Positions 1,727 to 54,503 of a DNA stretch of 64,000 nucleotides are shown piece by piece (within the stretch, counting starts at the first letter, position 1; the number at the start of each line of letters is the position of its first letter). Below the pieces are notes generated by a model. The model saw nothing but the letters and a program-made list of their open reading frames with translations, was not told the origin of the DNA and made no database searches. The stretch lies in contig JAFAHO010000060.1 in the NCBI GenBank assembly GCA_019237205.1, forward strand, positions 716 through 64,715. Direction: 5' to 3'. The stretch comes from Hyphomicrobiales bacterium (lineage in GTDB: Bacteria; Pseudomonadota; Alphaproteobacteria; Rhizobiales; Beijerinckiaceae). The position numbers and the translations under genes are program-made.

Positions 1727-1744
1727 TAGTACGCTACATTATTA
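1727..1744. promoter_or_regulatory. Operator motif A
   Basis: TAGTACG-CTAC-ATTATTA upstream of ABC operon 1; left half matches TMGTACG-NTAN-CGTACKA. Confidence 0.55.
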
Positions 1745-1883
1745 ATCGCCCGTTTGTGGGCGGAACGGAAAAACGTTTGAGGAGGCGCCCATTGTCGCCC
1801 GCGAAGAGGCCTCTGCAGCGGATCAATGTCCGCGCCGATAAGCGACGGCGCCGATCGGCCTTCCAATCACGCGCTCCGGCCTC

Positions 1884-2741
1884 ATGATCCCGCTTCTGAT
1901 CGCCAATTCTCTCGCCCTTGCGTCGCTCCTCATAATGATGTCGAGCGGTCTTGCGCTCATCTACGGCCTCAGGGACGTAATCAACTTCGGGCACGGCGCG
2001 CTTTATATGCTGGGCGCCTATCTCGGCTATTCGATCGCGCATGTCGCGGGATTTTGGGTCGCCCTCGTGGCGTCGCCGATCCTGCTCGCGCTGGTCGGAG
2101 CCGCGCTCGAAAATCTCGTGCTCCGCCCGCTGCAGCGACGATCCCACATTGAAGTCGCGCTGGTCACGTTGGGACTGGGAATTATCCTCGGCCAGGTTCT
2201 CATCTTTTTCTACGGTGGAGAAGCCCGCACTGTGGACGCGCCGCTCTCTTTGGCGGGTTCGGTCACTGCCTTTGGCCTGACCTATCCGATCTACCGCCTC
2301 TTCCTGATCGGCGTGGGTCTCAGCTCCTGTGCGCTGCTTGCGATTTGGCTGAATTTTTCGACCTCCGGCCTTCACGTTCGCGCGGTCAGCCAGGAACCGT
2401 CGGTCGCCCGCATGATGGGGATCGACGCGGACCGGCTAAGTCTTCTCGTGACTTCGCTGAGCGCCGCGCTCGCCGGCGTGGCGGGCGTCCTCGCCGGTCC
2501 CTACCTGTCCGTTGACCCAGGCATGGACGTCACGATGATCGTAAGCTGCCTTATCATTGTCGTGATCGGCGGAACGGGAAGTATCCCTGGAGCGATCGTC
2601 GCGGCGCTGCTCTACGGGTTCGTTCAGGTTGCAGGCTCCGTGTTCCTCCCCGACCTCGCCGCGCTCGCGCCCTATGCGCTGCTGATGGCCGTGCTCCTGG
2701 TCGCGCCGCGCGGGATCGGGCGCGGACGGGTGCTCGATTGA
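1884..2741 (+). CDS. livH: Liv/HAAT-family ABC permease
   Basis: GLALIYGLRDVINFGHGALYMLGAY; VVIGGTGSIPGA; multiple TM helices. Confidence 0.9.
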   Translation: MIPLLIANSLALASLLIMMSSGLALIYGLRDVINFGHGALYMLGAYLGYSIAHVAGFWVALVASPILLALVGAALENLVLRPLQRRSHIEVALVTLGLGIILGQVLIFFYGGEARTVDAPLSLAGSVTAFGLTYPIYRLFLIGVGLSSCALLAIWLNFSTSGLHVRAVSQEPSVARMMGIDADRLSLLVTSLSAALAGVAGVLAGPYLSVDPGMDVTMIVSCLIIVVIGGTGSIPGAIVAALLYGFVQVAGSVFLPDLAALAPYALLMAVLLVAPRGIGRGRVLD

Positions 2742-3781
2742 ACGGCCAGGCCGCAACTCGCGTAGCCTACCGACGCGGAGCCGCCCTGGTCCCGTCGGCA
2801 CGCGGGAGCCGGCGCATACTCGCCGGCGCTGCCGCGCTTCTTTTATTCACGATTGGCGCCTTTGCGCCTCAGTATCTGGCCAACGATTTCCTCCTGCGAT
2901 TGGCCGATGGGGGTCTCCTGCTTGGAATCCTCGCGCTGAGCATAGCTTTCCTCATGAGTCAGGCTGGGCTCGTCTCGCTCGGCGCAGCGAGCGTCTATGG
3001 CGGCGTCGGCTATCTCTTCGCGATCGCGATGAGCCAATGGTATCTTTCGCCGCTCGCCGCGATCGTCGCATCGATGGTCGTGGTGACCGTCTATGCGGCG
3101 ATCCTCGGCGCGCTCATCATCCGCACAACGCCGCTGGCCTTCATGATGCTTACGCTGGCGGCTGGGGAAATGATCAGCCACGCCGTGCTTCTTGAGGGCT
3201 TGAGAGACTATACGTCCGGCGCGGATGGTCTGGTCGTGAGTTTTGGCGGCACGCTGTTCGGCCTCGAGGCGGGGGACTTCGCCAATTCGGCAAGGTTCTG
3301 GCCCATCGTCTGGACGGCGGCGTGGGCCATCGGGAGCGCCGTCTGGGCGGTCCGCCGCTCGCGGCTCGGAGCAGTTCTCCGGGCTACGCGCCAGAACGAG
3401 GAGCGGATGCGGTTTTCCGGATTCGACACGTATGGTCCGCGCCTCGCCGCTTTCGTGCTCGCCAACGTTATCGCCGGCGCCTGCGGGCTTCTGCATGTCC
3501 TCAACTCTGGTTTCGTGTCGCCGGAGAGCCTGGGTCTGGGTCTCAGCACCAACGCCCTGGTCTCCGCGCTGATCGGCGGGACGGCCACGTCGGCCGGTCC
3601 GCTGCTCGGCGGAGTGATTTTCGCGTTTGCTCAGGACCAATTCGGCGCACACGGACTCACGCAGTTGCTCACGGGTCTCGCGATCGTGGTCTTCATCGTT
3701 CTCTTTCCAAGCGGCGTCGTGGGCGCATGGCGCGACTTCGCTCAATGGATCTGGCGCAACCGCAATCGGGAGGCCGGTTGA
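2738..3781 (+). CDS. livM: Liv/HAAT-family ABC permease
   Basis: AGLVSLG, FMMLTLAAGE, LRATRQNEERMRFSG; TTG start overlaps upstream stop. Confidence 0.88.
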   Translation: MNGQAATRVAYRRGAALVPSARGSRRILAGAAALLLFTIGAFAPQYLANDFLLRLADGGLLLGILALSIAFLMSQAGLVSLGAASVYGGVGYLFAIAMSQWYLSPLAAIVASMVVVTVYAAILGALIIRTTPLAFMMLTLAAGEMISHAVLLEGLRDYTSGADGLVVSFGGTLFGLEAGDFANSARFWPIVWTAAWAIGSAVWAVRRSRLGAVLRATRQNEERMRFSGFDTYGPRLAAFVLANVIAGACGLLHVLNSGFVSPESLGLGLSTNALVSALIGGTATSAGPLLGGVIFAFAQDQFGAHGLTQLLTGLAIVVFIVLFPSGVVGAWRDFAQWIWRNRNREAG

Positions 3782-4480
3782 ATGCTCGAGATCGACAAGC
3801 TCTCCGTCAGTTATGGGACAGTGCATGCATTGCAGGAGGTGGATCTCGAGATCGCCGGGGAGGGAGTGTTGCACGGCGTCATCGGGCCCAACGGCGCCGG
3901 AAAGTCCACCTTGCTCGACGCCGTTTCCGGCCGTCGCCGGCCGACCGCGGGCGCAATCCGCTATCGCGGCCAGGACATTACCCGCCGCTCGGTCGCGTGG
4001 CGACGGCGCCGCGGCATGGCGAGGTCGTTTCAGCGCACAAACATATTTCAGGATCTTACCGTCCGCGAGCAGCTCTCACTCGTCGCATGGCGCCTCGGCG
4101 ACGATCGGATCTCGGATGTCATCGAGGTCATGGATCTAGGCGACTATCTCGAAGAGAGAGCCGGACGAATCGCCTATGGCGTGCAACGTCGGGTCGATGT
4201 GGCGCTTGCGCTGATCGGCCGGCCGCAGCTCTTGCTTTTGGACGAACCTGGCGCCGGCCTTTCAGCCGAGGAAACGCTTCGCCTGTTTCAGCATGTCCGC
4301 GACCTGGTCGGCGAGCGCCGGATCGCGGCGGTCGTCGTCGAGCATGACGTAGACGCTGTCTTCGCCTGCTGCGGGGTTGTGACGGTGCTGGATCTGGGAC
4401 GGCATCTGGCGACCGGAGTCCCCGCGGAGATTCGCGCCGACCAGCGGGTCATAACGGCCTATCTCGGAAGCGCTGCATGA
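3782..4480 (+). CDS. livG: ABC ATP-binding subunit
   Basis: Walker A GPNGAGKST, ARSFQ, LLLLDEP, VEHD. Confidence 0.9.
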   Translation: MLEIDKLSVSYGTVHALQEVDLEIAGEGVLHGVIGPNGAGKSTLLDAVSGRRRPTAGAIRYRGQDITRRSVAWRRRRGMARSFQRTNIFQDLTVREQLSLVAWRLGDDRISDVIEVMDLGDYLEERAGRIAYGVQRRVDVALALIGRPQLLLLDEPGAGLSAEETLRLFQHVRDLVGERRIAAVVVEHDVDAVFACCGVVTVLDLGRHLATGVPAEIRADQRVITAYLGSAA

Positions 4481-5172
4481 GCGCGCTCAAGATGCAGGCG
4501 CTCTACGCCGGCTACGGCGCTTCGACTGTGCTCCATGGCGTCGATCTCGAAATCGGCAAGGGAGAGTCGGTAGCGATCGTCGGCCGGAATGGGGCCGGCA
4601 AGTCGACGCTCTTGATGTCGGTCTTTCGCGAAACGAATATCCTTTCCGGGGAAATATGGGTCGGCGGGGCGCGTATCGACGGGCTGCCCGGCTATTCCGC
4701 CGCAAAACTCGGCGTCGCCATCGCGCCGCAGGGACGGCGGATCCTGCCGAACCTCAGCATCCGGGAGAACCTCCTGCTTGGCGCGGCGACCCGCCGCCCG
4801 GGCCGGTGGAATCTGAGGACGGTGTTCGACCTCTTTCCCGCGCTCGAGCAGCGCGCCAATTCCGGCGGCATGATGCTGAGCGGCGGACAGCAACAGATGC
4901 TCGCCATCGGCCGGGCGCTGATGGCCAACCCCGACCTTCTCCTGCTCGACGAACCTTCGGAAGGACTGTCGCCGCTGCTGGTCGATGACCTTGTGCGCGC
5001 GCTCGACGAGATCCGGCGCGCGGGCACGGGGATCCTCGTGGTCGAACAGCATCTGAGCCTCGTGCGCCGCGCGACCGACCGGTTCGTGATCCTGTCGAAG
5101 GGCGAGGTGGTTGGCGCGGCGCCGACCGCGGAAATCGACGATCCGAGACACCAGACTTTGATGGCGCTTTAG
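4477..5172 (+). CDS. livF: ABC ATP-binding subunit
   Basis: GRNGAGKST, LSGGQQQMLAIGRALM, LLLLDEPSEGL. Confidence 0.92.
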   Translation: MSALKMQALYAGYGASTVLHGVDLEIGKGESVAIVGRNGAGKSTLLMSVFRETNILSGEIWVGGARIDGLPGYSAAKLGVAIAPQGRRILPNLSIRENLLLGAATRRPGRWNLRTVFDLFPALEQRANSGGMMLSGGQQQMLAIGRALMANPDLLLLDEPSEGLSPLLVDDLVRALDEIRRAGTGILVVEQHLSLVRRATDRFVILSKGEVVGAAPTAEIDDPRHQTLMAL

Positions 5173-5193
5173 CCAAATCGTGGGAGGAGAACG

Positions 5194-6396
5194 ATGAGAA
5201 TGACGACTAACCGTTGGCTGATGGGAGCCGCGACAGGCGCTGCGGCGCTGCTCGCCGCAAGCGCTGCGCTTGCGGAGGACACGATCAAGATCGGCGCGCT
5301 CCTGATCGACGCCGGGCCGCTGGCCGGCCTCAAGGAATCGCAGACCAAGGCGATCAATCTGGCGATCGAGCAGATCAACGCGGCGGGGGGCGCGGCGGGC
5401 AAGAAACTCGAGCCGGTCTTCATCACTTACGCCGGCACGCCCGACACCGCAGTCGATGGCGCGACGCGCGCGGTTCAGAAGGACGGCGCCCTCTTCCTCA
5501 CCGGTATGGATACGTCCGCCGTCTCGCCGGCCCTCTCGGCCAAGCTTGGCTCTTTGAACGCGTTGATGGTCGAAGTGTTCGCCCAGGCGGACCCGCTGAC
5601 CGGCAAGGGCTGCAACCCGAACTACTTCCGCGCCAACGTCAACGATTCGATGCTGATGAATGCGGTGGGAGACTTCCTCAAAGACAAGCCGATCAAGTCC
5701 TGGGACATCATTGCGGTCGATTATTCCTCCGGCCGGGACGCGGCGCAAAAGTTCCAGGCGCTGGTCAAGTCGCAGGGCGCAACCGTCGGAAAGTTGCTGT
5801 TTGCTCCCTCCGGAACGGCGGATTTCGGCGCCAAGATCTCGGAACTCGGCGCCAATCCGTCCGAGGGGCTCTATGTCACGATCTTCGGCAGCGACGCGAT
5901 CAATCTCGCCAAGCAGCAGGCGCAATTCGGGCTCTTCGCCAAATACAAGATGGTGATCGGCAATTCTTTCGTGATCCCGCAGGTCCTCCCAGCAATGGGC
6001 GATGCGGCGCTCGACGTCTATCAGACGCTCGGTTTCGTTCCCGGCGAGCCGGGAGCGCAAGCCGATGCTTTCGTGAAAGCGTACAAGGAACGATACAACG
6101 GAGAACAGCCCGCCTACACCTCCGCGGACCAATATGCGGCGATCCAGCTCATGGCCGCCGCCATCAACAAGGCGAATTCGACCGACGTCGCCGCCGTTCG
6201 CGCCGCGATGTCCGGCCTCACCGCCGACACGGTGCTCGGCCCGGCGGAAGTTCGTGCGGCCGACCATCAGACGGCGCGGCCGATCGTCATGAACCAGATC
6301 GTCAAGGGGCCGGACGGCAGGGCCGCGTATGAGATCAAGAAGGTTTTCACCGGCTCCGAAGTCATGGCCCCTGTGGATCCGGCATGCAAAATGTGA
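5194..6396 (+). CDS. Periplasmic substrate-binding protein, Leu/Ile/Val-binding fold
   Basis: Signal peptide ending ALA-EDTIKIG; AIEQINAAGG; DFGAKI; RAADHQ. Confidence 0.9.
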   Translation: MRMTTNRWLMGAATGAAALLAASAALAEDTIKIGALLIDAGPLAGLKESQTKAINLAIEQINAAGGAAGKKLEPVFITYAGTPDTAVDGATRAVQKDGALFLTGMDTSAVSPALSAKLGSLNALMVEVFAQADPLTGKGCNPNYFRANVNDSMLMNAVGDFLKDKPIKSWDIIAVDYSSGRDAAQKFQALVKSQGATVGKLLFAPSGTADFGAKISELGANPSEGLYVTIFGSDAINLAKQQAQFGLFAKYKMVIGNSFVIPQVLPAMGDAALDVYQTLGFVPGEPGAQADAFVKAYKERYNGEQPAYTSADQYAAIQLMAAAINKANSTDVAAVRAAMSGLTADTVLGPAEVRAADHQTARPIVMNQIVKGPDGRAAYEIKKVFTGSEVMAPVDPACKM

Positions 6397-6461: not shown

Positions 6462-7481
6462 CTACACGACCAGCGAAACCTTGCCGAACCGGCCGCCGGT
6501 TTCGAACCTGTCGAACGCGGTCCGGATGTCGGACATGGCGAAGCGGGCGTCGATGACGGGCCTCACCAGCCCGCGGCTGAAGACGTCGAGAAGCCGGCGC
6601 AATTCGCCGACGCTCCCGCCCGTAGACCCGTAGATCTCGAGCTGACGGATAAACACGCGCTGCAAATCGGCCGGTGGATTGGAGCCGGTCGTCGCGCCGC
6701 AGGTCACGAGCCTCCCGCCCCGGCGCAGCGACTTGAGGGATTCTCCCCAGCTGGCGGCGCCGACGCTGTCGATCGCCATGTCGACGCCGCCTCCGCTCAT
6801 GTCGAGAATGGCCTTGGAGACCTTGTCCCTGCCGTAGTTCACGCCGCCTTCGGCTCCCATCGCGACGGCGCGCGCAATTTTCTCGTCGCTGGACGACGTG
6901 ACGAACACGCGGGCGCCGATGAGCTTCGCCAACTGGAGACAAGCAACGGCGACGCCGCCGCCGACGCCCACGATCAGCACGCTCTCCCCTGGCTGCAGCG
7001 CCCTCTTGCCGAAGAGCATTCGCCATGCGGTCAGGTGACCTGTCATCAGGGCCCCAGCCTCCTCGAGATCCGCGTCGTCGGGCAGGGGAAAGAAGCAGCG
7101 GGTCGGCATGGCGACATACTCGGCGAAGCCGCCATGCCGATGTTCGCCCATGATTTTCACGCTCTCGCACAGGGGCTGGTCCCCGGCGAGACAATAGCGG
7201 CATTTTCCGCAGAAGGCCTCGGAATAGATCAGGGCCTTCATGCCGGGCCGCAAGCCGCCGCCCGGCTCCGCTTCAGCGACAACGCCGGCGGCGTCGACGC
7301 CCATAACCTGCGGCAGCACGTGCGTGATCCCGGCGCCGTTGTCGCGCATGTAGAGATCGACGCGATTGAGCGAGCTGGCGATCACTCTGAGCACCGACTC
7401 GCCGGCCGCCGGCGTGGCATCGGGAAAATCACGCCAGTTCGCGCCCGCCGGGCCGCGCTCTTCAAGGACAACCGCTTTCAT
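6462..7481 (-). CDS. MDR-family alcohol dehydrogenase / quinone oxidoreductase-like protein
   Basis: SLNRVDL, GVDAAG, CGKCRYC...C structural Zn loop, GVGGGVA, TCGATTG, FGKV. Confidence 0.88.
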   Translation of the reverse strand: MKAVVLEERGPAGANWRDFPDATPAAGESVLRVIASSLNRVDLYMRDNGAGITHVLPQVMGVDAAGVVAEAEPGGGLRPGMKALIYSEAFCGKCRYCLAGDQPLCESVKIMGEHRHGGFAEYVAMPTRCFFPLPDDADLEEAGALMTGHLTAWRMLFGKRALQPGESVLIVGVGGGVAVACLQLAKLIGARVFVTSSSDEKIARAVAMGAEGGVNYGRDKVSKAILDMSGGGVDMAIDSVGAASWGESLKSLRRGGRLVTCGATTGSNPPADLQRVFIRQLEIYGSTGGSVGELRRLLDVFSRGLVRPVIDARFAMSDIRTAFDRFETGGRFGKVSLVV

Positions 7482-7545
7482 CGTCTCTCCATCGGCCCTC
7501 GGCGCAGGTATATATCCGGCGGCGCGATCCCTGAACGGACGATAT

Positions 7546-7563
7546 TAGTTCGTTAACGTACTG
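7546..7563. promoter_or_regulatory. Operator motif A in a divergent promoter
   Basis: TAGTTCG-TTAA-CGTACTG between 7481(-) and 7580(+). Confidence 0.65.
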
Positions 7564-7579
7564 TCGAGATCGGGGCGCC

Positions 7580-8647
7580 ATGATCTCATTTGCGCTTACG
7601 GAAGAGCAGACCCTCGTGCAGGCCGCGGCCAAGCAGTTCGCCGCCGACGAGGCTCGCCCCGCCGCGCGCGCCGCTGACGAAGCGGGCGAATTTCCGGAAA
7701 TGCTTCTCCGCCGCGCCTGGGATCTGGGCCTGGCCAAGAGCGCGGCAGACGCCGAACCGATGGACCAGCCCTCGGTGCTGAACGCAGTCGCGCTCGGTGA
7801 AATCGCTCACGGCGACGCGGCGCTGGCTGTCGCGCTCGCGGGGGCGCTGGGCTTCGCCAGAGCCGTCGCGTCGCAGGGAACGGAAGCCCAGCGCGAACGG
7901 CATCTCGCGGCCTTCCAGTCGGACGCGCCGGTCTTCGCCGCGGTCGCCACCCGCGATGCGGGCTGGTTTTGCGGGCAAGGACGGGCGACGCGCGCCGGGC
8001 GCGCCGGCAACGGGTGGCGGATCGAAGGCGCCAAGGCGCTCGTTCCGCTCGCGGCGCGCTGCGATCGGCTGTTGGTGACGGCCGAGACGGAAGAGGGCGT
8101 GCGAGGCTTCATCGTCGAAGCAAAATCTCCGCGCCTCCGCATCGAGCCCGCCAGGGGCACGCTTGGCATGCGCGCGCTGCAGATGGCCGACATTGTTCTC
8201 GATGGGGTCGAGGTCACGGACGACGAGCTCCTGCCGGGGGCGATGAGACGCGTCATCGACGCGAGCCGGATTGCACTGACAGCGGTCCTCGGCGGCCTCG
8301 CCCGCGCTGTCTATGAGTACACATTGCCTTACGTGAAGGAGCGGGTGGTGCATGGCGAGCCGATCGGCCGGAAACAAGCGGTGGCTTTCAAGCTCGCGGA
8401 CATGCATATCGCGGCGAACGCTATCCGATGGACGGGACTTAGAGCTGCGGCCGAGCTCGATTCGAATCCGGAAGCCGCACGGACGGCGCGGCTCGCGCAA
8501 CGCTACGCCGCCGAACAGGCGCTGAAGATCGCCGACGAGGGCGTGCAGCTCTTCGGCGGGTACGGCTTCATTCGCGAATATCCGCTCGAGATGTGGTACC
8601 GGAACGCCCGGTCCCTCTCGGTGCTCGATGGTCTCGCCGGAGTGTAG
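7580..8647 (+). CDS. Acyl-CoA dehydrogenase-like protein, degenerate, probable non-catalytic subunit
   Basis: ACAD C-terminus (QAVAFKLADM, QLFGGYGFIREYPLE) but no TEPxxGSD and LDG in place of the catalytic xEG. Confidence 0.8.
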   Translation: MISFALTEEQTLVQAAAKQFAADEARPAARAADEAGEFPEMLLRRAWDLGLAKSAADAEPMDQPSVLNAVALGEIAHGDAALAVALAGALGFARAVASQGTEAQRERHLAAFQSDAPVFAAVATRDAGWFCGQGRATRAGRAGNGWRIEGAKALVPLAARCDRLLVTAETEEGVRGFIVEAKSPRLRIEPARGTLGMRALQMADIVLDGVEVTDDELLPGAMRRVIDASRIALTAVLGGLARAVYEYTLPYVKERVVHGEPIGRKQAVAFKLADMHIAANAIRWTGLRAAAELDSNPEAARTARLAQRYAAEQALKIADEGVQLFGGYGFIREYPLEMWYRNARSLSVLDGLAGV

Positions 8648-8657
8648 GGAGAGAAAG

Positions 8658-12884: not shown

Positions 12885-12888
12885 GGGG

Positions 12889-46744: not shown

Positions 46745-46809
46745 GCGGCGGGCTCGCGCCCCGGTGAGTACGCGCAGATCACTCGCAAGCGCGACGAAAG
46801 ACTAGCGTC

Positions 46810-47706
46810 GTGCTGGCGAATCCAATCGTGTTGTTCATCCAGGTGATGAACGCGCTGTCGCTGGGCATGAGCCTTTTCGTCATCGCGGCGGGGCTCACGC
46901 TCATCTTCGGCGTGCTGCGGATCGTGAACTTCGCTCACGGCGCTTTTTACATGGTTGGCGCTTATCTCGCCTACACGGTTGTGCAAACTTTCGGAGACAC
47001 CAATTTGGGTTTCTTTCTTGGCGTGGCGGGCGCCGGACTTGGCATGGGGTTGATCGCATTCCTCATCGAACGGTTTCTCCTGACAAGGCTCTATGACAAG
47101 GACCCGATGCTGCAACTTCTCCTCACCTTCGCGCTGGTGATGATCCTCAGGGACGCGGTGCGAATGGTCTGGGGCTCAGATCAACATAGCATCTCGACGC
47201 CGCCGGCTCTGAGCGGCGCGGTGAATCTCGGGTTGACCTACTACCCTACCTATATGCTCTTCCTTCTCGTCCTCGGCCCGATCGTCGCCTTCGCGCTCTG
47301 GTTTGGAATAGAGCGGACGCGATGGGGTCGAATTGCTCGTGCCGCACGCCTCGATCGAGAAATGCTTTCTGCGTTGGGCGTCGACGTAAATCTTGTCTAC
47401 GCCGCAGTTTTTGTCGTGGGCTCGATGTTGGCCGCGATCGGCGGCGCTCTCGCTGCCCCGAGATCTGCCGTCGACCCCGGGATGGACGCACTCGTCATCA
47501 TCGACTGTTTCATCATCGTAGTGATCGGTGGGCTGGGGAGTCTGATTGGGAGCTTCGTTGGGGCTCTGATTCTGGGTTTCCTGACAATTTTCGGCTCGTT
47601 CTACCTTCAGGAATGGGTCATCGTTGCCTCGTATGCGATGATGGTTTTCATTCTGATCCTCCGCCCGTGGGGATTGTTCGGCCAATCCGACGAAGTCCGT
47701 CACTGA
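46810..47706 (+). CDS. livH: Liv/HAAT ABC permease
   Basis: GLTLIFGVLRIVNFAHGAFYMVG, VVIGGLGSLIG. Confidence 0.92.
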   Translation: MLANPIVLFIQVMNALSLGMSLFVIAAGLTLIFGVLRIVNFAHGAFYMVGAYLAYTVVQTFGDTNLGFFLGVAGAGLGMGLIAFLIERFLLTRLYDKDPMLQLLLTFALVMILRDAVRMVWGSDQHSISTPPALSGAVNLGLTYYPTYMLFLLVLGPIVAFALWFGIERTRWGRIARAARLDREMLSALGVDVNLVYAAVFVVGSMLAAIGGALAAPRSAVDPGMDALVIIDCFIIVVIGGLGSLIGSFVGALILGFLTIFGSFYLQEWVIVASYAMMVFILILRPWGLFGQSDEVRH

Positions 47707-48632
47707 TGACCAGCCGGCCGCAGCTCATCTTTCTCCTCGCCGTCTTTGCAGTGCTCGCGGTCGTCCCTTTTCTCGGCGCCCGCTACCCGGTGGAGCTGGC
47801 GACCCAGGTCATGATCTTCAGCCTCTTTGCGTTGAGCCTCAATGTCCTGGCGGGTCAGACCGGGAACCTATCATTTGGTCATGCGGCCTTCCTGTCGATC
47901 GGGGGATATGCCTGCGCCTATTTTCTGACCCGGCTCGGGTGGCCCCTGGCTGTTAGCATGGCGGGGGCGGTGATCATGTCGGCCGCAGCGGCGTTGATCA
48001 TCGGCGCGCTATGCGTTCGGCTGAACGCCATCTACTTTTCGATGCTGACGCTCGCGTTCTCAATGCTCGTTTGGGCCGTTGCGACCAAATGGAGGTCGAT
48101 CACCGGCGGAGACGACGGATTTGTGGGCGTCGACGTTCCGATTTATCTGACTAACCCCTATTCGTTCTTTTGGTTCACGCTGGCTGTGTGCGCGCTCTCT
48201 GTCGTGGCGCTTTGGATCCTGAGCGCGTCGGCAATGGGTCATGCCCTCGTCGCGATTCGTGAAAACCCGACACGAGCCAGCTTTCTCGGCATGAACGTGA
48301 AAAGGATGCGGCTTGCGGCTTTTGTCATAGCCGGGGCGTTCGCTGGTCTCGCCGGCTGCCTCCTCGCGATGTACGTTCGCGGGATGTACCCCCAAACGGC
48401 CTTCTGGACGCAGTCAGGTCAGGTCATCATCATGGTCCTTCTGGGCGGGATACACTCTTTTATAGGGCCGATCATTGGCGCGGCGGTGCTCTATCTACTG
48501 GAAGTCATCACCGAGCAATATACCGAGTACTGGTCCTTCGTAATGGGGCTCATCCTCCTCGCAATCGTCATGGCGTTTCCCGAGGGGCTCGTCGGGATAT
48601 TCTCCAAGCTGCGGGCGCCCCGGAGGAGTTGA
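47706..48632 (+). CDS. livM: Liv/HAAT ABC permease
   Basis: GNLSFGHAAF, YFSMLTLAF, TGGDDG, AIRENP; true start MTSRP at 47706. Confidence 0.9.
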   Translation: MTSRPQLIFLLAVFAVLAVVPFLGARYPVELATQVMIFSLFALSLNVLAGQTGNLSFGHAAFLSIGGYACAYFLTRLGWPLAVSMAGAVIMSAAAALIIGALCVRLNAIYFSMLTLAFSMLVWAVATKWRSITGGDDGFVGVDVPIYLTNPYSFFWFTLAVCALSVVALWILSASAMGHALVAIRENPTRASFLGMNVKRMRLAAFVIAGAFAGLAGCLLAMYVRGMYPQTAFWTQSGQVIIMVLLGGIHSFIGPIIGAAVLYLLEVITEQYTEYWSFVMGLILLAIVMAFPEGLVGIFSKLRAPRRS

Positions 48633-48635
48633 GGC

Positions 48636-49376
48636 TTGGCGATTCTCGAAATAGTCAACCTTACGAAGAATTTCGGCGCCTTTGTCGCCGTCCGCGGCGT
48701 AACGTTGCAGATCGAGGAATTTGCCACTCACGCAATCATCGGTCCCAATGGCGCGGGCAAAACGACGCTGTTCAATCTGATCAGCGGGTTGGCTTCGCCC
48801 ACGACGGGAGAGGTGTGGTATCGCCAGCAGCGGTTGGCGCGCTTGCAGCCCCATGAGATCGTCAGGGCCGGGATGGCGCGTTCGTTTCAGCGCGTGAACG
48901 TTTTTTCGCGAAGGACGGCGTTCGAAAATGTTCAAGTCGCGCTCATCGCGAGCGCTGGCATCAACTACAATTTTCTACGCAACGCAGGATCTCTGTTCCG
49001 CGAAGAGGCCCTGGAATTGCTCAGGCTGGTGCGATGCGAGGACGAAGCATTGCGGCGGGCGAGCGAACTGGCGTACGGCAAGCAGAAGCAACTAGAGCTC
49101 GCTGTTGCGCTTGCCGCGAAGCCCAAGCTCCTGCTGCTTGATGAGCCGACTGCAGGCATGTCGATTGCCGAAACAAAATCAACCATCGGCTTGATCAAGG
49201 ATGTCGTGGCGGACCGCGGACTCACGCTGCTCTTCACCGAACACGACATGAACGTCGTGTTTGAAATAGCGTCGGCGATTTCGGTCCTGCACCACGGCGA
49301 AATCATCGCCTCCGGGGCGCCTGAGGACGTCCGAAAGAACGACGACGTCAGGCGCGTCTATCTTGGCCAGGATTGA
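48636..49376 (+). CDS. livG: ABC ATP-binding subunit
   Basis: GPNGAGKT, ARSFQ, LAYG, LDEPTAG, TEHD. Confidence 0.92.
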   Translation: MAILEIVNLTKNFGAFVAVRGVTLQIEEFATHAIIGPNGAGKTTLFNLISGLASPTTGEVWYRQQRLARLQPHEIVRAGMARSFQRVNVFSRRTAFENVQVALIASAGINYNFLRNAGSLFREEALELLRLVRCEDEALRRASELAYGKQKQLELAVALAAKPKLLLLDEPTAGMSIAETKSTIGLIKDVVADRGLTLLFTEHDMNVVFEIASAISVLHHGEIIASGAPEDVRKNDDVRRVYLGQD

Positions 49377-50086
49377 CTATGGAGCTTCTCAAGGTCGAGA
49401 ATCTGTCAGTGTCTTACGGCCTGAGCCGCGTCCTCCACGACGTCTCGCTGGCGGTGAACAGCGGGGAGCTTGTCTCGCTGATTGGTCGAAATGGCGTCGG
49501 GAAGTCGACGACCATGAGAGGGATCATGGGGCTACAACCTCCGAGGGGTGGCTCGATCCTCTGGAAGGGAAAACAGATCGTCAGGAGGGCGGCACATCGC
49601 AATGCGCGCGATGGCATCGGGTACGTTCCCGAAGATCGGCGAATCTTCAGTGAATTGAGCGTTTGGGAGAATTTGGATGTCGCGCGCTTGCCGGCCCGCG
49701 GGGGCCAGACTCCATGGGACGAGGATCGTGTCTTCGCGCTCTTTCCCGATCTTCAGCAGTTCCGTGATCGTGCGGGGGGACTGTTGAGCGGCGGGCAGCA
49801 GCAGATGCTGACCATCGGCCGTACCCTGATGGGCAACCCCGAGCTTCTTCTCCTCGATGAGCCATCAGAAGGGGTCGCGCCTTTGGTGGTCAGACAGATC
49901 GAGCGAAAGATCCAGGAGTTGAAGCAGGCCGGACTGTCCATCGTGCTCGCGGAGCAGAACCTGGGCTTCGTGCTGGCGCTCAGCGACCGCTGCTACGTTC
50001 TCGAAAAGGGAGCAGTAGTGTTTTCGGGAACCGCGCGGGAGCTTGGCCGGAACCAGGATATCCAGGATCGGTATCTCCACGTGTAG
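49373..50086 (+). CDS. livF: ABC ATP-binding subunit
   Basis: GRNGVGKST, YVPEDR, LSGGQQQM, LDEPSEG. Confidence 0.92.
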   Translation: MTMELLKVENLSVSYGLSRVLHDVSLAVNSGELVSLIGRNGVGKSTTMRGIMGLQPPRGGSILWKGKQIVRRAAHRNARDGIGYVPEDRRIFSELSVWENLDVARLPARGGQTPWDEDRVFALFPDLQQFRDRAGGLLSGGQQQMLTIGRTLMGNPELLLLDEPSEGVAPLVVRQIERKIQELKQAGLSIVLAEQNLGFVLALSDRCYVLEKGAVVFSGTARELGRNQDIQDRYLHV

Positions 50087-50122
50087 ATTCGTGGTGCGAC
50101 CGCTTCCGCCTCGCCGCTTCCA

Positions 50123-51268
50123 TCAAACGTATTCTCTGCCGAACAGCTGACGCGCAATTATCAGCTTCTGAATTTGCGGCGTGCCGTCGGCAATCAGTTG
50201 TCCCGCGACATCGCGAAGCCTCTGCTCGACGGCAAAATCCTGCGTGTAGCCATAGTGGCCATGCAACACTAGACAGTCCTGAATGGCCCCCATGCAGATT
50301 TCCGGGATGAATCCTTTGCACATCGCGGCTTCCGCGTTGTGAGGGAGGCCCTGGTCGCGCAGCCATAGTGTGCGGTAGCAATGCCAGCGAGCCATGGTGA
50401 GGCGCGTGTGCCATTCGGCCACCGGAAATGAAACGCCCTGATTGCGCGTGATCGGTTGACCAAAAGCGATGCGGCTCTTGGTGTATTCGATCGTCTCTTC
50501 GAGGGAGATCTGCGCGGCCCCAATGCACATGAGTCCGATAAGCGCCCGCGTGTATTCAAACGTCTGCATGACGCGGGAGAAGGCTCCATTTTCGGGCCCG
50601 ATCATATTTTCCGAAGGCACTTCCACATCGTCGAGAAAGAGCGATCCACGCACGATGCCTTTTGCCCCCATATCTGAATATCGCGAGCGCGATACGCCAG
50701 CGGAGTGGAACGGAACGAGGAAGGCGGACACTCCGCGCGCCCCGGCATTCGGATCGGTCTTCGCGAATACGATGCCGGCGTGCCCGGCCATCAAAAGGGT
50801 GATTGCGGATTTCTCGCCACGGATGACGTAGTGGTCGCCCCGACGCTCAGCCTTGGTGCGAATCGCGGCTGCGTCCGACCCGCAATGCGGCTCCGTCAGG
50901 CAGACGCAAAGCACTTTCTCGCCCGAAGCCATCCCCGGCAACCATTCGCGCTGCACGGATTGCGACGCGTGCTGGCCAAGAAGGTCGCCGGCAAATGAGC
51001 TGTTCAAAATGCCGTAGCAACAGTTGAAGTCGCCCCGGGCGGCTTCCTCAATGGCGAGGCCGGCAGTGACGCAATCGAGGTTCTGCCCGCCATAGGCTTC
51101 AGGCACGCGCAGCCCCAGCAGGCCAACTGCGCCCATTTTGCGCCAGATCTCGGCAGGAAATTCGCCCGTCCTGTCCCAGTGAGCATATTTGGGGCGCAAT
51201 TCCCTTGCGGCGAACTCACGGAGGGAATCGCGCACCAGTTCCTGTTCCGGCGTGAGCGCGAAATCCAT
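50123..51268 (-). CDS. Second AliB/CHC-CoA dehydrogenase-like ACAD
   Basis: LTEPHCGSDAA, GEKSAI, RGSLFL, RALIGL, GLPHNAEAAMCK, HGHYGY, IADGT; start MDFAL at 51268. Confidence 0.85.
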   Translation of the reverse strand: MDFALTPEQELVRDSLREFAARELRPKYAHWDRTGEFPAEIWRKMGAVGLLGLRVPEAYGGQNLDCVTAGLAIEEAARGDFNCCYGILNSSFAGDLLGQHASQSVQREWLPGMASGEKVLCVCLTEPHCGSDAAAIRTKAERRGDHYVIRGEKSAITLLMAGHAGIVFAKTDPNAGARGVSAFLVPFHSAGVSRSRYSDMGAKGIVRGSLFLDDVEVPSENMIGPENGAFSRVMQTFEYTRALIGLMCIGAAQISLEETIEYTKSRIAFGQPITRNQGVSFPVAEWHTRLTMARWHCYRTLWLRDQGLPHNAEAAMCKGFIPEICMGAIQDCLVLHGHYGYTQDFAVEQRLRDVAGQLIADGTPQIQKLIIARQLFGREYV

Positions 51269-51306
51269 GGCTGTGACCTCGGTAAGCCTGCTATTGGAAA
51301 GGCAAG

Positions 51307-51324
51307 TCGTATAGTAGCGTACGA
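51307..51324. promoter_or_regulatory. Operator motif A
   Basis: TCGTATA-GTAG-CGTACGA upstream of 51268(-). Confidence 0.7.
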
Positions 51325-51380
51325 CCGTACAACGAAGCTCGGTTCCGCGCAAGCTGCAAAGCATTGATCTCTGCACCAAG

Positions 51381-51395
51381 GTGATTCTCACTCAT
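51381..51395. promoter_or_regulatory. Operator motif B, weaker copy
   Basis: Reverse complement ATGAGTGAGAATCAC, 12/15 to the 51526 site. Confidence 0.45.
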
Positions 51396-51517
51396 GTTCT
51401 ATCGTGCCGAACGAGCGAGTGGCTTTCTGGGGAAGGATATGTCCAAAAGTCGCCGAAATTCGGGGACATCCCATTCGTCGGGGGATTCGCCCAAAGGCTT
51501 CACGGCGTTTTTTTGAC

Positions 51518-51546
51518 TTGACGTAGTGAGTGAGACTTACTATGGT
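51518..51546 (+). promoter_or_regulatory. Sigma70 promoter with operator motif B in the spacer
   Basis: TTGACG-N17-TATGGT; GTGAGTGAGACTTACTA at 51526..51542. Confidence 0.72.
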
Positions 51547-51584
51547 CGCCGGAGATTGGGGACGCGTTCGCCGAGGAGCTCGGG

Positions 51585-52733
51585 ATGGAAGACGTGCTGG
51601 ACCTGTTTGAGGACGTCGCCGCGGATTCCCTCGGCTACGCTCGGCGGTGGAAAGAGGAAACCGGCGGCCGAGTGATCGGCGTGCTGCCGATGCATTTTCC
51701 GGCCGAGCTTGCGCACGCAGCGGGAGCCCTCCCAGTTATCCTGCAGGAGGACGAAGAGCCGATCACGATCGGCCATAAGAGCGTTTTCAATTTTTATTGC
51801 GGTTTCAATCGCAGTCTGATCGACCAGGCGTTGCGCGGGAAGTTCTCGGGCCTCGACGCGATCATGTTTGGCGATCACTGCGTCCAGCTGTTGGGCACCG
51901 CTGACGTAATTCGCGCCAACATCCCGGGGCTGCCGATCCTTTTCAACCAGCTTTGTTCGATCATCGATGCGGAATGGGCCCTGGCCGAGACGGAGCGGAC
52001 CTTTCAGCAGCTGTGGAAGGAACTTGAAACGCTCATCGGCCGGAAGATCGATGAAGCGGATGTCCGGGCGTCCATTCGTCTTTTCAATCGCGACCGTGGG
52101 CTCATGCGGCGACTCTACGACTTGCGCCGCAATGGGCAGATCGCCTTGAGTGCGCGTCAAATGCAGGCAGTAGTCAAATCGTCGATGGTGATGGACAAGG
52201 CGCAGCATTGTGCGCTTCTCGAGAGGTTCCTTACCCAGAAGCGCTCGGAGCCTTCAGCCGTCAGGTCGGTCAGGGTGTTTCTGTCCGGTCACCTGTGTCA
52301 CGCGCCTAAGCTCGACATTCTCGACCTCATAGAAACATGCGGCGGGCGAGTTGTGGATGACGACTTGTACCACGGCTTCCGCTTCATATTTGCGGACATC
52401 GACGAGCAGGCGCCGCCCGTTCGGGCGCTTGCGGATTGGTACTTGAGTCGGAATCGAAAAGTTCCCTGCCCAACGCGAGCGGTCAAGGGAGCGGACTGGG
52501 AGCAATACCTCCTGAAAGCGGTCGCCGATTGCCGGGCTGACGGACTTATTGTGCTCATGGCCAAGTTTTGTGAGCCCCACATGTTTTTCTATCCCGAAAT
52601 CAAGGAAGCCTTTGAACGGCGCGGCGTTCCCCATCTTCTGGTCGAGACGGAGCACGAAGGGGTTGCGCTCGAAGCGCTGAAAACTCGTCTCGAGACTTTC
52701 ATGGAGATAACCCGGCGCGCTGTCGCCGCGTGA
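51585..52733 (+). CDS. Benzoyl-CoA reductase BcrC/BzdN-like or 2-hydroxyacyl-CoA dehydratase subunit
   Basis: YARRWKEETGGRVIG, ELAHAAG, C in GDHC, VVDDD, PCPT, KFCEPH, VPHL, RLETF. Confidence 0.85.
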   Translation: MEDVLDLFEDVAADSLGYARRWKEETGGRVIGVLPMHFPAELAHAAGALPVILQEDEEPITIGHKSVFNFYCGFNRSLIDQALRGKFSGLDAIMFGDHCVQLLGTADVIRANIPGLPILFNQLCSIIDAEWALAETERTFQQLWKELETLIGRKIDEADVRASIRLFNRDRGLMRRLYDLRRNGQIALSARQMQAVVKSSMVMDKAQHCALLERFLTQKRSEPSAVRSVRVFLSGHLCHAPKLDILDLIETCGGRVVDDDLYHGFRFIFADIDEQAPPVRALADWYLSRNRKVPCPTRAVKGADWEQYLLKAVADCRADGLIVLMAKFCEPHMFFYPEIKEAFERRGVPHLLVETEHEGVALEALKTRLETFMEITRRAVAA

Positions 52734-52766
52734 CCGATCGTCACGGCAGGTACGGAGGAGAAGTTC

Positions 52767-54125
52767 ATGCTGAATCTTGTTGATCGCCCGGGCCCCAGTC
52801 CCATTTTCGGCAACGGAGAGCGGGCCAATAGGCTTCAGAGCACCCGCTTTGGCGGCAAACTCGTCAACGCGTACTGGGAGAGTTTGTTTCGCGCCAAAGA
52901 AGAGGGAAAGAAGGTCGTCTGGTACAACGGAACCTATATCCCGCCGTTTTTTCACGCCCACGATCTCGCCTGGGTTCACGGCGAGGCGTGGTCCGCCTAT
53001 CTTGCGGCCAAGCATGGCGAGATGCCGGCGCAAAAGGCTGGAGAGCAGCGCGGATATGATCGCGAACTCTGCTCGTACGCGAGGACGCATATCGGTCAGG
53101 CGCTGATCGATCTCGGGAAACTTAAGGACGGGACGCTCGGAATTGCGCCCGACGATGAGCGCGCGGTCACCATGGCGAAGCTGCCGCCGCCGGACATGAT
53201 CATCAACGCTTATCCCTATTGCAGTTCGGGACAGCAGTGGGACGACATCACCTATCGGCTGTTTGGCAAGAAGGTGCCAATGTTCACCGTCTCGATCCCC
53301 TTGCTATGGGGCGGGCGGCCGGACGCAGGATATCTGCGCGGCGAGGAGTGGGAACAACGCTCTCGCTATGTCGCGGATCAGTTAGTCGCCATGACCCGGT
53401 TCCTCGAGGAGCATACCGGACGAAAATACAACTTTGACCGGCTAAGCGAAGTCATGGGCTACGTCAAAAAAGCTGCGCGGCTTCGATTGGAGGCTATGGA
53501 CCTTTGTACAGCGACTCCCTCGCCGGCGAGCTTTTTCGACTGGATCGTCAGCATTGCTCCGGTGAACTTTCTCCCCGGCGATCAGAACCTGGTCACGTAC
53601 TTCGAAGGCGTAAAGGCGGAGATCAAAGAGAGGGCGGAGCGGGGCATCGGCGCAGTCAAGGACGAGAAGTACCGGCTCTTCTTCGACGGGATGATGAACT
53701 GGAACAAGGTTGGCTGGCTTGCGGACAAATTCGCGGCGGTCAATGCCTGTGTCGTCGCAGGACGTTATACTCACATGTCGTTCTGGCAGGAGCCGGAATT
53801 GATCGATCTCGACGAACCTGTCCTGGGCATGGCGCAGAACTACCTGATCTGCCCCAACAATCATGGCGCTCCGATCATGATCGGAGAGATCGAGCGAATT
53901 TGCGACAAGTTTGGAATTGGTGGAATGGTGATGCACGCCTCGCGCACCTGTCGAGGCATGACCAATTCCCAGTTCCTCATTGCCGAGTCGGCGAAACGGA
54001 ACGGGCGGCAGGCTCTGTTCTTCGAGGGCGATGTCGCTGACGAGTCTTTCTATAAGGACGAATTGCTGAACACTCGACTCGAGGCGATGATTGAGTCGAT
54101 GGAGGCGCAACGGCGCGCGGCCTGA
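52767..54125 (+). CDS. Benzoyl-CoA reductase BcrB/BzdO-like or 2-hydroxyacyl-CoA dehydratase subunit
   Basis: ELCSY, LPPPD, YPYC, PSP, EKYRL, SRTC (three putative cluster Cys), FEGD, RLEAM. Confidence 0.85.
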   Translation: MLNLVDRPGPSPIFGNGERANRLQSTRFGGKLVNAYWESLFRAKEEGKKVVWYNGTYIPPFFHAHDLAWVHGEAWSAYLAAKHGEMPAQKAGEQRGYDRELCSYARTHIGQALIDLGKLKDGTLGIAPDDERAVTMAKLPPPDMIINAYPYCSSGQQWDDITYRLFGKKVPMFTVSIPLLWGGRPDAGYLRGEEWEQRSRYVADQLVAMTRFLEEHTGRKYNFDRLSEVMGYVKKAARLRLEAMDLCTATPSPASFFDWIVSIAPVNFLPGDQNLVTYFEGVKAEIKERAERGIGAVKDEKYRLFFDGMMNWNKVGWLADKFAAVNACVVAGRYTHMSFWQEPELIDLDEPVLGMAQNYLICPNNHGAPIMIGEIERICDKFGIGGMVMHASRTCRGMTNSQFLIAESAKRNGRQALFFEGDVADESFYKDELLNTRLEAMIESMEAQRRAA

Positions 54126-54474
54126 ATCGAACCGTGGCTTCGCGTTGGCGCCCGGCGCGCGTGGCCTCGACGGTTGGGTTCCTCTGATGGCCTCGCGACC
54201 TAGGCGCTTTGAACATTGGTCGAGGCCGATGGGAGAAGCGCGCGTTGGCGAGTCCGTGAGCCGCGGTTGGCCCTCGACTGAAGCACCTGCGTCCGGGATC
54301 AGGGGTCGCTTTCCATCTGCCGCAGGGAGCGAGCAAATCGCCGCTCCCCGGCCCGCATCGCGATTCTGTCTGACGTTAGTTGGACGTCCCGGGCTGTCCT
54401 CGAAAAATTCTTGGAAGCGTGGCGGCAGAGCGCGAAACCAGCGTGAATTTCGCCGGCTCCATATGCGAGAGCGC

Positions 54475-54503
54475 TTGCATTTCGTACGGTAACGTACTAT
54501 TGT
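54475..54503 (+). promoter_or_regulatory. Sigma70 promoter with operator motif A in the spacer
   Basis: TTGCAT-N17-TATTGT; TCGTACG-GTAA-CGTACTA at 54482..54499. Confidence 0.75.

Follow-up and report, generated by a model that had tools for sequence, protein, structure and literature searches.

MarR-type paralogues as probable readers of a conserved palindrome at the operon starts of an acyl-CoA breakdown cluster

Known regulators of CoA-dependent pathways

In actinobacterial steroid catabolism, the TetR-family regulators KstR and KstR2 split a large CoA-dependent supercluster into two regulons by means of distinct palindromic operators. The fold of the MarR family comprises six helices, and a beta wing follows the recognition helix. 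Among its members are SlyA and RovA, which act globally in virulence and anti-silencing and recognise a 12-bp TTAGCAAGCTAA-type site. Both proteins (PDB 3Q5F, 4AIJ) act as dimers on a short palindrome, whose major groove takes up the recognition helix and whose minor groove is contacted by the wing. CouR of Rhodococcus jostii RHA1 keeps a CoA-dependent catabolic pathway repressed until a CoA thioester of that pathway releases it. BadR, described in Rhodopseudomonas palustris and Aromatoleum sp. CIB, is a MarR-type repressor of the bad-ali cyclohexanecarboxylate genes, and its 10-bp operator (CAATnnATTG / CAAN4TTG) is found at the bad-ali promoters (PMC9795900).

Here, a ~57-kb gene cluster for acyl-CoA breakdown was analysed within a window of 64,000 nucleotides, the whole stretch of Hyphomicrobiales DNA under study. 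A conserved DNA switch lies before almost every operon, and the regulator/operator system is apparently not yet described: literature searches on the regulator, on its regulon and with the site sequence itself returned nothing relevant, and the 3974 homologues retrieved carry generic MarR names only. The locus resembles the bad-ali system in having a putative MarR repressor beside BadH-/BadI-type genes and a palindromic operator at catabolic promoters; BadR has a CoA-thioester effector, and an acyl-CoA would play this part here. The regulon is, however, far larger than that of BadR (10 sites, ~50 genes, two paralogous regulators), and an identity with BadR was rejected on operator pattern and equivalog scores. 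The only occurrence of the BadR operator pattern in the window is a chance match in an integrase gene at 62484, with none at promoters, and the BadH-/BadI-like proteins fall below the equivalog cut-offs (401 vs 467.6 for TIGR03210; 314 vs 431.2 for TIGR03206). CouR and related acyl-CoA-sensing MarR repressors (PDB 3FM5, 5CYV) share the MarR fold and appear at rank 20 in the structure search, but CouR is a distant sequence match (E ~1e-6) with hydroxycinnamate substrates and a small regulon. The closest solved sequences are SlyA and RovA (63 bits, ~30% identity), in contrast to which the proteins examined here appear to be cluster-specific catabolic regulators with an 18-bp site. The likeness to KstR/KstR2 is one of logic only, these being TetR and not MarR proteins, from another phylum and with other motifs.

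Genetic organization of the cluster

The transcription units and the two MarR genes are as follows.

1884-6396, plus strand: Liv-type unit, branched-chain-type ABC transporter (LivHMGFK-like)
6462-9797, minus and plus strands: divergent units, Zn-ADH (minus) and two ACADs (plus)
9993-10469, plus strand: marR1, 158 aa, clade A, proposed reader of the GTAC-class sites
10494-18226, minus strand: operon with ACAD, APH kinase, nitroreductase, HADH, CaiB-type CoA-transferase, His-phosphatase, TesB, MaoC
18295-21517, minus strand: operon with acyl-CoA synthetase and two SDRs
21597-29304, minus strand: core operon under site 29353, with SDR, ACAD, MarR2, BadH-like, BadI-like, CoA-transferase, BKACE, ECH
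26694-27218, minus strand: marR2, 174 aa, clade B, internal to the core operon, proposed reader of site 29353
29392-38468, plus strand: divergent core operon with HMGS-like, SCPx-type thiolase, MaoC, CitE-like lyase, ACAD, SDR, MaoC, CurA-like reductase
38477-41967, minus strand: operon with APH kinase, a 162-aa protein, a 371-aa protein without Pfam match, ECH; its likely start is a GTG at 41967
42363-50086, plus strand: operon with ECH, two ACADs and a second Liv-type transporter
50123-51268, minus strand: AliB-like ACAD under site 51307
54538-58817, plus strand: operon under site 54482, with SDR, SDR, AMP-forming ligase, SDR

A dehydratase-like gene pair (51585-54125) and its activase (58903-59922) have another motif and lie outside the regulon. 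The description of the region as an island is doubtful: the G+C content of the left 44 kb equals that of the genome, and the same supercluster with the same sites is found in large chromosomal contigs of relatives.

Palindromic sites at operon starts

All ten palindrome copies listed in the initial annotation were recovered at their positions, and all are intergenic, even though intergenic DNA makes up just 5% of the interval 1600-60000. Scores below refer to a matrix (hereafter the GTAC matrix) built from the five strong sites at 7546, 18258, 21547, 51307 and 54482.

1727-1744: GTAC class, good in one half (TAGTACGCTACATTATTA); precedes the Liv-type ABC transporter operon by 139 bp; score 16.7
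7546-7563: GTAC-class candidate operator in the divergent ADH / ACAD-ACAD promoter region; score 28.6; conserved in L004 and L006
9937-9954: weaker GTAC-class site, 38 bp upstream of marR1 (putative autoregulation); score 15.9
18258-18275: perfect palindrome, TCGTACGTTAACGTACGA, candidate operator of the 8-gene operon running from 18226 to 10494; score 35.2; conserved in L004, L006 and L008
21547-21564: GTAC class, strong in one half; precedes the acyl-CoA synthetase-SDR-SDR operon; score 26.5; orthologous sites in L022 and L005
29353-29370: candidate MarR2-class operator, TCGTAAGCATATTTACAA; the SDR-ACAD-marR2 operon (minus) and the HMGS-like operon (plus) diverge from the 87-bp promoter region that contains it
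42014-42031: weak but conserved (reverse complement TCGTGTGCTAGTTTATCA); precedes the APH-kinase operon by 46 bp; footprint in 9 relatives
42136-42153: weak but conserved (reverse complement TCGTAATATAGTTTATCA); lies within the ECH-ACAD-ACAD-Liv2 promoter region; footprint in 9 relatives
51307-51324: GTAC-class candidate operator, 38 bp upstream of the AliB-like ACAD; score 26.5
54482-54499: GTAC-class candidate operator without mismatch, 38 bp upstream of the SDR-SDR-acyl-CoA synthetase-SDR operon; score 33.5

A pattern search of the window with TMGTACGNTANCGTACKA, allowing up to 3 mismatches, returned matches at 1727, 7546, 18258, 21547, 51307 and 54482, with 0 mismatches at 18258 and 54482. 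These six matches compare with 0.18 expected, and none of 100 shuffles reached six. In the whole assembly (5.45 Mb), the pattern has nine matches: six are on the contig of the window, as are all those with up to 2 mismatches. With the GTAC matrix, the five strong sites score 26-35 and the best score elsewhere in the genome is 18; 1727, 9937 and 29353 (the last at 13.0) exceed the ~0.15 matches expected per 64 kb at such a score. The sites at 42014 and 42136 score 9.9 and 8.7, which is noise level, and are at that level with the clade B matrix described below, too. A reading of these two as chance matches, based on the matrix scores, was overturned by phylogenetic footprinting: they are the sole conserved blocks across 9 relatives in an otherwise diverged ~400-bp intergenic region, and are thus considered real in spite of their scores. 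Both probably belong to the GTAC class, the assignment of 42014 to a regulator being ambiguous.

Nine sites combine a GTAC-type half-site with a central TA that never varies; sites of this type accompany MarR1-like regulators. Of the roughly 14 transcription units that start between 1.7 and 59 kb, about 11 have a site at their start. A start codon follows 16-48 bp downstream of 8 of the 10 sites (139 bp for 1727; 209 bp for 42136). The earlier proposal that the sites are operator-like elements upstream of transcription units is supported. Promoter-like sequences overlap the sites at 7546 (TCGACA-17-TATCGT, minus strand), 21547 (TTGACG-16-GATAGT) and 42136 (TGGACA-18-TAAACT). The overlap with a sigma70 spacer, initially annotated for 18258 and 54482, is confirmed for the former, where TTGACT-16-TACGAT lies over the site; at the latter, no promoter match reached the scanner threshold, and TTGCAT/TATTGT agrees at just 7 of 12 positions. 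The position of several sites over predicted -35/-10 elements points to repression by promoter occlusion.

Two MarR paralogues and two operator classes

MarR1 and MarR2, which are 58% identical, are the only members of their subfamily in this genome. MarR domains (Pfam PF01047 / PF12802) were detected above the gathering cut-offs in both (59.5 and 51.5 bits for MarR1; 57.5 and 45.3 for MarR2). The structural model of MarR1 (pLDDT 81) has a MarR fold, with a helix at residues 65-78 followed by strands at 81-85 and 93-97, and TM values of 0.7-0.86 to MarR, SlyA, RovA and MftR. Family traits also extend to the DNA: MarR operators are typically palindromes of ~16-20 bp with half-sites one helical turn apart that overlap promoters, and the 18-bp dyad has its GTAC cores 10 bp apart, centre to centre. 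Autoregulation, a further family trait, is suggested by the sites upstream of marR1 (9937) and of the marR2 operon (29353), both conserved in relatives.

The subfamily falls into three well-supported clades, A, B and C. The site at 29353 is a different palindrome, TYGTAAAY-NN-RTTTACRA, conserved at the promoter of the MarR2 operon in 22 other genomes (clade B loci). In a matrix built from those clade B genomes only, leaving out the present one, it scores 26.5 and is the top match in the genome, and the strong GTAC sites score below 10. Exact GTAC-N6-GTAC occurs 4, 0 and 21 times in clades A, B and C, respectively, with none in 37 clade B loci, and exact GTAA-N6-TTAC 1, 8 and 0 times; this correlation of clade and operator rests on a single evolutionary split and so represents one event, not many independent ones. 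Residues that set clade B apart from clades A and C map to the recognition-helix N-cap (G64/T) and to the tip of the wing (R90, V92, K93 vs G/A, A, R).

Conservation in related loci

Eighty loci (L001-L080; 1.34 Mb) were fetched via the MarR1 protein, a selection that biases the co-occurrence of motif and MarR, and contain ~130 matrix matches vs ~3 expected. Orthologous promoters in L004, L006 and L008 carry sites, and in most clade A and clade C loci the MarR gene has a site in its own upstream region. The counterpart of 9937 likewise keeps a distance of ~57 bp from the marR1 gene in L001, L004 and L006, and is weaker in L002; relatives also have a counterpart of 1727 before Liv operons, both orthologous and paralogous. 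In Bradyrhizobium, the second SDR of the 54482 operon has orthologues that adjoin sites, and in Caulobacteraceae a MarR1-like regulator is found within the BadH/BadI core cluster, together with GTAC-type sites. Among loci fetched via MarR or an unrelated cluster gene, the same palindrome was found at the same promoters in Roseiarcus, Bradyrhizobium, Caulobacteraceae and many Burkholderiales. Sixty mostly betaproteobacterial loci, fetched via the unrelated cluster gene, yielded 61 GTAC-class matches vs ~1.6 expected, with the same consensus, TCGTACGCTACCGTACGA. Loci L081-L160 offset the selection bias just in part, since all ~5-6 further genomes checked hold at least one subfamily MarR and no clean case of a genome with the target genes and without the subfamily was found among them. 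In Ottowia, the target locus is 830 kb from the MarR gene and has no site; some Variovorax loci have no match with either matrix, though a subfamily MarR is present in the genome.

Alternative readings

The preferred reading, to which we assign a probability of roughly 0.78, is that the palindromes are operators of a proteobacterial MarR repressor subfamily, with MarR1 reading the GTAC class and MarR2 reading 29353, repression by occlusion and release by an acyl-CoA. The initial annotation had proposed that one repressor controls all units. Its operator-like sites and its choice of the MarR paralogues as best candidate binders are retained, but a single repressor appears too simple, with 29353 forming a distinct class that travels with MarR2 orthologues and the GTAC class travelling with MarR1-like regulators. 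That one paralogue binds all ten sites, 29353 included, in a single regulon, the other paralogue doing something else, is accordingly considered unlikely. It would fit the frame T-N-G-T-N10-A-C-N-A that the ten sites share, with some mismatches, the very similar recognition helices of MarR1 and MarR2, and the many hybrid GTAC/TTAC sites of clade C loci, which indicate that position 6 is no strict discriminator and that cross-binding is possible. The two matrices separate the classes, however (13 vs 26.5 for 29353), exact GTAC dyads are absent from clade B loci, and the central TA that is invariant in the GTAC class is not maintained in the B class. MarR binding might also activate or counteract silencing, as with SlyA and RovA, which are the closest solved relatives by sequence; this is very unlikely given that the sites lie over predicted -35/-10 elements or between them and the start codon, a position typical of repressors, and that MarR proteins of catabolic clusters such as BadR are repressors (PMC9795900).

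A reader outside the MarR family, either the TetR protein encoded in the window (60011-60775) or an unlinked global factor, is highly improbable. TetR operators are likewise short palindromes, and the TetR protein had been named earlier as a candidate, but it was rejected as the binder and is effectively excluded: none of the 80 motif-bearing MarR loci encodes a homologue, and the promoter of the dehydratase-like genes carries a different inverted repeat. A global factor is disfavoured, since the motif stays within the cluster both in the present genome and in complete genomes of Bradyrhizobium; in the latter, the strict pattern is restricted to the cluster or its edge (1 of 1 inside it in L040; 3 of 3 within 22 kb overlapping or adjoining it in L049). 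Least probable of all is that the palindromes work at the RNA level, as hairpins that terminate or attenuate transcription, or are a dispersed repeat with no role in regulation. Three sites do have genes of the same direction on both sides, the perfect copy has a folding energy of -8.7 kcal/mol, and 54484-54497 is terminator-like according to the scanner; most copies, however, have 4-7 of 9 pairs and fold weakly (-1 to -4.6 kcal/mol), base identity and not pairing is conserved in relatives, and sites occur at divergent promoters and before a regulator gene. The hairpin or terminator reading was rejected on this weak folding and pattern of conservation.

Proposed mechanism and significance

Under the two-regulator reading, a MarR1 dimer would most likely bind the GTAC-class sites (T-N-G-T-A-C-R-C-T-A-G-Y-G-T-A-C-N-A) at 1727, 7546, 9937 (its own promoter), 18258, 21547, 51307 and 54482, and probably those at 42014 and 42136. 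MarR2 would most likely bind the related but distinct palindrome at 29353, and thereby control its own operon and the divergent core operon. A dimer bound at these sites, which lie over or just downstream of predicted -35/-10 elements and mostly 16-48 bp ahead of the start codon, would block RNA polymerase. Release would be brought about by a pathway intermediate, probably an acyl-CoA thioester. Such a mechanism is that of a standard MarR repressor circuit, an ordinary kind of gene control, and as such is well supported.

A broader proposal is more tentative, and we rate it slightly below even odds: duplicated MarR paralogues may have acquired different half-site preferences (GTAC plus a fixed central TA vs GTAAAY with a free centre) through few residues (G64/T; wing R-R-V-K vs G-R-A-R), splitting the supercluster into core and peripheral regulons with cross-talk through hybrid operators, in a widespread and undescribed system of Alpha- and Betaproteobacteria. 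If this is true, the split supercluster would serve an uncharacterised alicyclic, branched or 4-hydroxy acyl-CoA pathway. The paralogues would offer a natural case of co-divergence of operator and regulator, with a short list of candidate specificity residues.

From sequence alone, the sites define a ~50-gene regulon for a CoA-dependent pathway whose conservation extends from Roseiarcus and Bradyrhizobium as far as Rubrivivax and Rhodoferax. With the operator known, the gene set of this pathway can be delimited in any genome, and the repressor-promoter pair could serve in a screen for the metabolite that acts as inducer, and hence for the substrate.

Palindromes at the starts of acyl-CoA transcription units

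Sequence comparisons indicate that ten 18-bp palindromes, named here by their start positions (1727, 7546, 9937, 18258, 21547, 29353, 42014, 42136, 51307, and 54482), constitute a real, strongly conserved set of operators for a MarR subfamily. A pattern search with TMGTACGNTANCGTACKA, allowing up to three mismatches, returned six matches in the window (1727, 7546, 18258, 21547, 51307, and 54482) for 0.18 expected, a number reached by none of the shuffled window sequences. The source assembly (5.45 Mb in 459 contigs, G+C 64.8%; the window spans positions 716-64715 on a contig of 64.9 kb) contains nine such matches, of which six are on the window's contig, as are all those with at most two mismatches. 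The motif described in the initial annotation is thus confirmed. With a position matrix built from the five strong sites, which have a GTAC-type half-site and a central TA (GTAC class), these sites scored 26-35 and the top match elsewhere in the genome 18.0. Sites 1727 (16.7), 9937 (15.9), and 29353 (13.0) scored lower but still exceed the background of about 0.15 matches per 64 kb at that level; 42014 (9.9) and 42136 (8.7) were at background level.

A gene map refined by means of Pfam, NCBIfam, and codon-position G+C places every one of the ten sites between genes, as had been claimed, with intergenic DNA representing only 5% of positions 1600-60000. The distance to the downstream start codon is 16-48 bp for eight sites, 139 bp for 1727, and 209 bp for 42136. 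Promoter-like matches on the correct strand were found over 18258 (TTGACT-16-TACGAT), 7546 (TCGACA-17-TATCGT), 21547 (TTGACG-16-GATAGT), and 42136 (TGGACA-18-TAAACT), the half-site itself supplying part of each -10 match. The sigma70 overlap annotated at 18258 was therefore recovered, and that annotated at 54482 was not, since neither 54482 nor 51307 had a promoter-like match at the scanner threshold.

The region from 1.9 to 58.8 kb is a dense acyl-CoA gene set of about 14 transcription units. Its products comprise nine acyl-CoA dehydrogenases, crotonases, MaoC hydratases, SDRs, two AMP-forming ligases, CoA-transferases, two APH-type kinases, one BKACE enzyme, BadH-like and BadI-like proteins, a CitE-like lyase, an HMGS-like/thiolase pair, and two Liv-type ABC transporters. 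Regulators and other genes discussed here are as follows.

9993-10469, MarR1, regulator
22897-23825 (-), BKACE-family protein
26694-27218, MarR2, regulator; its start overlapping the stop codon of the preceding ACAD gene
39296-40411 (-), 371-aa protein without Pfam match, gene of the 371-aa module
40427-40915, gene of the 371-aa module
40912-41967, gene of the 371-aa module
51585-54125, dehydratase-like pair
58903-59922, activase of the dehydratase-like pair
60011-60775, TetR, regulator
Right end of the window, partial LysR, regulator

MarR1 and MarR2 are 58% identical and are the assembly's only close subfamily members; any other MarR reaches at most 44% identity. Because of its overlap with the upstream ACAD gene, MarR2 is internal to its operon. 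A family site occurs at the start of about 11 of the approximately 14 units: Liv1, ADH, ACAD-ACAD, marR1, the 8-gene ACAD-kinase operon, the ligase-SDR-SDR operon, two divergent core operons both served by 29353, the APH-kinase operon, the ECH-ACAD-Liv2 operon, the AliB-like ACAD, and the SDR-ligase operon. No family site was found at the start of the dehydratase-like pair or its activase, which are near a different inverted repeat. This repeat (ACCAAGGTGATTCTCACTCA / TGAGTGAGACTTACTATGGT, at 51375-51394 and 51527-51546) occupies the ACAD/dehydratase-like divergent region, with one arm overlapping a promoter-like TTGACG-17-TATGGT, and is a candidate operator of TetR, distinct from the MarR sites.

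Base composition and genomic setting

The G+C content of the left 44 kb equals the genome average (about 65%; genome mean 64.8%), and that of the right 20 kb (44000-64000) is lower (59-61%), which suggests, from composition, an origin different from the rest. This low-G+C part holds two of the best GTAC sites (51307 and 54482) and no MarR gene. The cluster had been called an island, a label made doubtful by the composition of the left 44 kb and by a relative that has the supercluster, in the same order and with the same spacing, within a 1.95-Mb contig (L004, L094). ARAGORN detected no tRNA gene on the whole contig (the window with its flanks of 715 and 192 bases), and integrase fragments are found at 738-1010 and 61798-62754.

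Conservation of the sites with the regulator

MarR1 homology was used to fetch 80 loci (1.34 Mb) from Roseiarcus (77-94% identity), Caulobacteraceae, Bradyrhizobium, sphingomonads, and others. These contain about 130 GTAC-matrix matches at a score of at least 13, where the own-genome background predicts about 3. In three close relatives among them (L004, L006, and L008), the orthologous promoters of ADH/ACAD, the ACAD-kinase operon, Liv operons, and marR1 carry sites, and the intergenic DNA flanking these sites has diverged. The MarR protein tree comprises three well-supported clades, namely A (MarR1 orthologues), B (MarR2 orthologues), and C (mostly Bradyrhizobium); in L040, from Bradyrhizobium sp. 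PUT101, a clade C gene occupies the MarR1 position, downstream of two ACAD genes. In clades A and C, most regulator genes are themselves preceded by a site, such as TAATACACTAGCGTACTT about 150 bp upstream in Bradyrhizobium. Bradyrhizobium loci carry 5-7 sites per 20 kb, all in intergenic gaps just 5' of gene starts, and the strict pattern TNGTAC-N6-GTACNA, searched for in complete Bradyrhizobium genomes, was only found inside or adjoining the cluster: the single genome match lies inside L040 in one case, and all three lie within 22 kb overlapping or adjoining L049 in another.

The ACAD heading the kinase operon (16979-18226) is 91.5% identical to its PUT101 counterpart (L040:18708-19952) and the adjacent SDR 90%, far above the neighbouring MarR (56%); such identity would come from a recent transfer or from very strong constraint. 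Aligned clade C MarR proteins from Bradyrhizobium loci (L065:10001-10525, L074:10001-10522, and L040:9983-10495) have a C-terminal Lys/Arg-rich tail (e.g., KTRKKRRVAA), absent from the clade A and B proteins in the alignment, that may provide an extra DNA contact.

To avoid the bias of a MarR-based choice, a second set of 80 loci was fetched via the unrelated 371-aa protein. Sixty of these fall outside the close alphaproteobacterial relatives, mostly in Burkholderiales (e.g., Rubrivivax, Rhodoferax, and Hydrogenophaga), and contain 61 GTAC-class matches for about 1.6 expected, with the same consensus, TCGTACGCTACCGTACGA, in which T9 and A10 are nearly invariant. Several of these sixty loci additionally encode a MarR with 53-60% identity to MarR1, and one or more subfamily members are present in each of five further genomes checked. 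The Ottowia target locus is 830 kb from the MarR gene, and no site was found in it. As for 42014 and 42136, the alphaproteobacterial loci of the second set show little conservation across the region orthologous to 41.97-42.36 kb save for two blocks, which are exactly these sites, each beside a -35-like element; the two weakest sites of the initial annotation can therefore be considered real.

Two other explanations were considered. The palindromes could be RNA hairpins, which is unlikely since most copies fold weakly and relatives keep base identity rather than pairing. TetR, the alternative reader first put forward, is effectively removed as a candidate, since none of the 80 MarR1-fetched loci encodes a homologue.

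The 371-aa protein is 64-90% identical across Alpha- and Betaproteobacteria and a few Gammaproteobacteria. An APH-type kinase accompanies it in the loci examined and a protein of about 160 aa in several, a co-occurrence marking the three as a conserved module of uncharacterised function. In Rhodobacteraceae bacterium QY30 (L102, CP023455.1), the kinase/371-aa module and two GTAC-class sites are on a 124-kb plasmid; parts of the regulon can therefore be plasmid-borne.

Two operator classes

In clade B loci, the HMGS-like gene and the SDR-ACAD-marR2 operon diverge from a promoter region with a conserved palindrome, TYGTAAAY-NN-RTTTACRA. It was found in 22 loci (e.g., TCGTAAACAAGTTCACTA and TTGTAAATAGGTTTACGA), and 29353 (TCGTAAGCATATTTACAA) is its orthologue. 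With a B-class matrix built from these other genomes alone, 29353 had the top score of the whole assembly (26.5; runner-up 15.5), and strong GTAC sites scored below 10. The central TA is invariant in the GTAC class and not kept in the B class.

Exact half-site counts by MarR clade
GTAC-N6-GTAC: clade A 4, clade B 0, clade C 21; rest of own genome about 0.02 per 100 kb
GTAA-N6-TTAC: clade A 1, clade B 8, clade C 0; rest of own genome about 0.07 per 100 kb

Operator class tracks the regulator clade rather than the regulated genes, because a Caulobacteraceae locus (L016) has a MarR1-like regulator inside its BadH/BadI core cluster, with GTAC-type sites. This correlation corresponds to one split in the MarR tree. 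Residues shared by clades A and C and differing in clade B are G64 (T in B) at the recognition-helix N-cap, and R90, V92, and K93 (G/A, A, and R) at the wing tip. Mapped on a structural model (pLDDT 81; helix 65-78, strands 81-85 and 93-97), these four positions are candidate determinants of operator class. In clade C loci, 21 further sites are GTAC/TTAC hybrids, and the clades may therefore cross-recognise each other's operator class. Sites 42014 and 42136 combine the GTAC-class central TA with GTAA/ATAA-like halves, and their reader is uncertain. In place of the one repressor proposed earlier for some 50 kb, the sites are probably read by two MarR paralogues with diverged specificity.

Proposed mechanism and relation to known systems

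In the MarR-DNA, SlyA-DNA, and OhrR-DNA structures, dimer recognition helices are set in successive major grooves. A fold match to MarR-type structures was found here, and by analogy a MarR dimer would place its two helices in the same way, which fits the 10-bp core-to-core spacing of the half-sites. Bound near the start codon, the dimer would occlude RNA polymerase, and a CoA thioester of the pathway may release it, as is a feature of BadR (PMC9795900) and CouR.

The BadR operator, CAATnnATTG, is unlike these palindromes, and a pattern search found none in the cluster promoters; the BadH-like and BadI-like proteins are below NCBIfam equivalog cut-offs. Literature searches for the regulator, regulon, and site strings returned no description, and 3974 homologues carry generic names only. 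The BKACE-family protein matches NF053538 ('3,5-dioxohexanoate:acetyl-CoA acetone transferase') with 546 bits for a curated NCBIfam cut-off of 430, and as the sole cluster enzyme reaching an equivalog cut-off it is a clue to the substrate. The operator set is a further case of a well-known type of MarR switch and is chiefly useful as an entry point to a widespread, uncharacterised acyl-CoA pathway.
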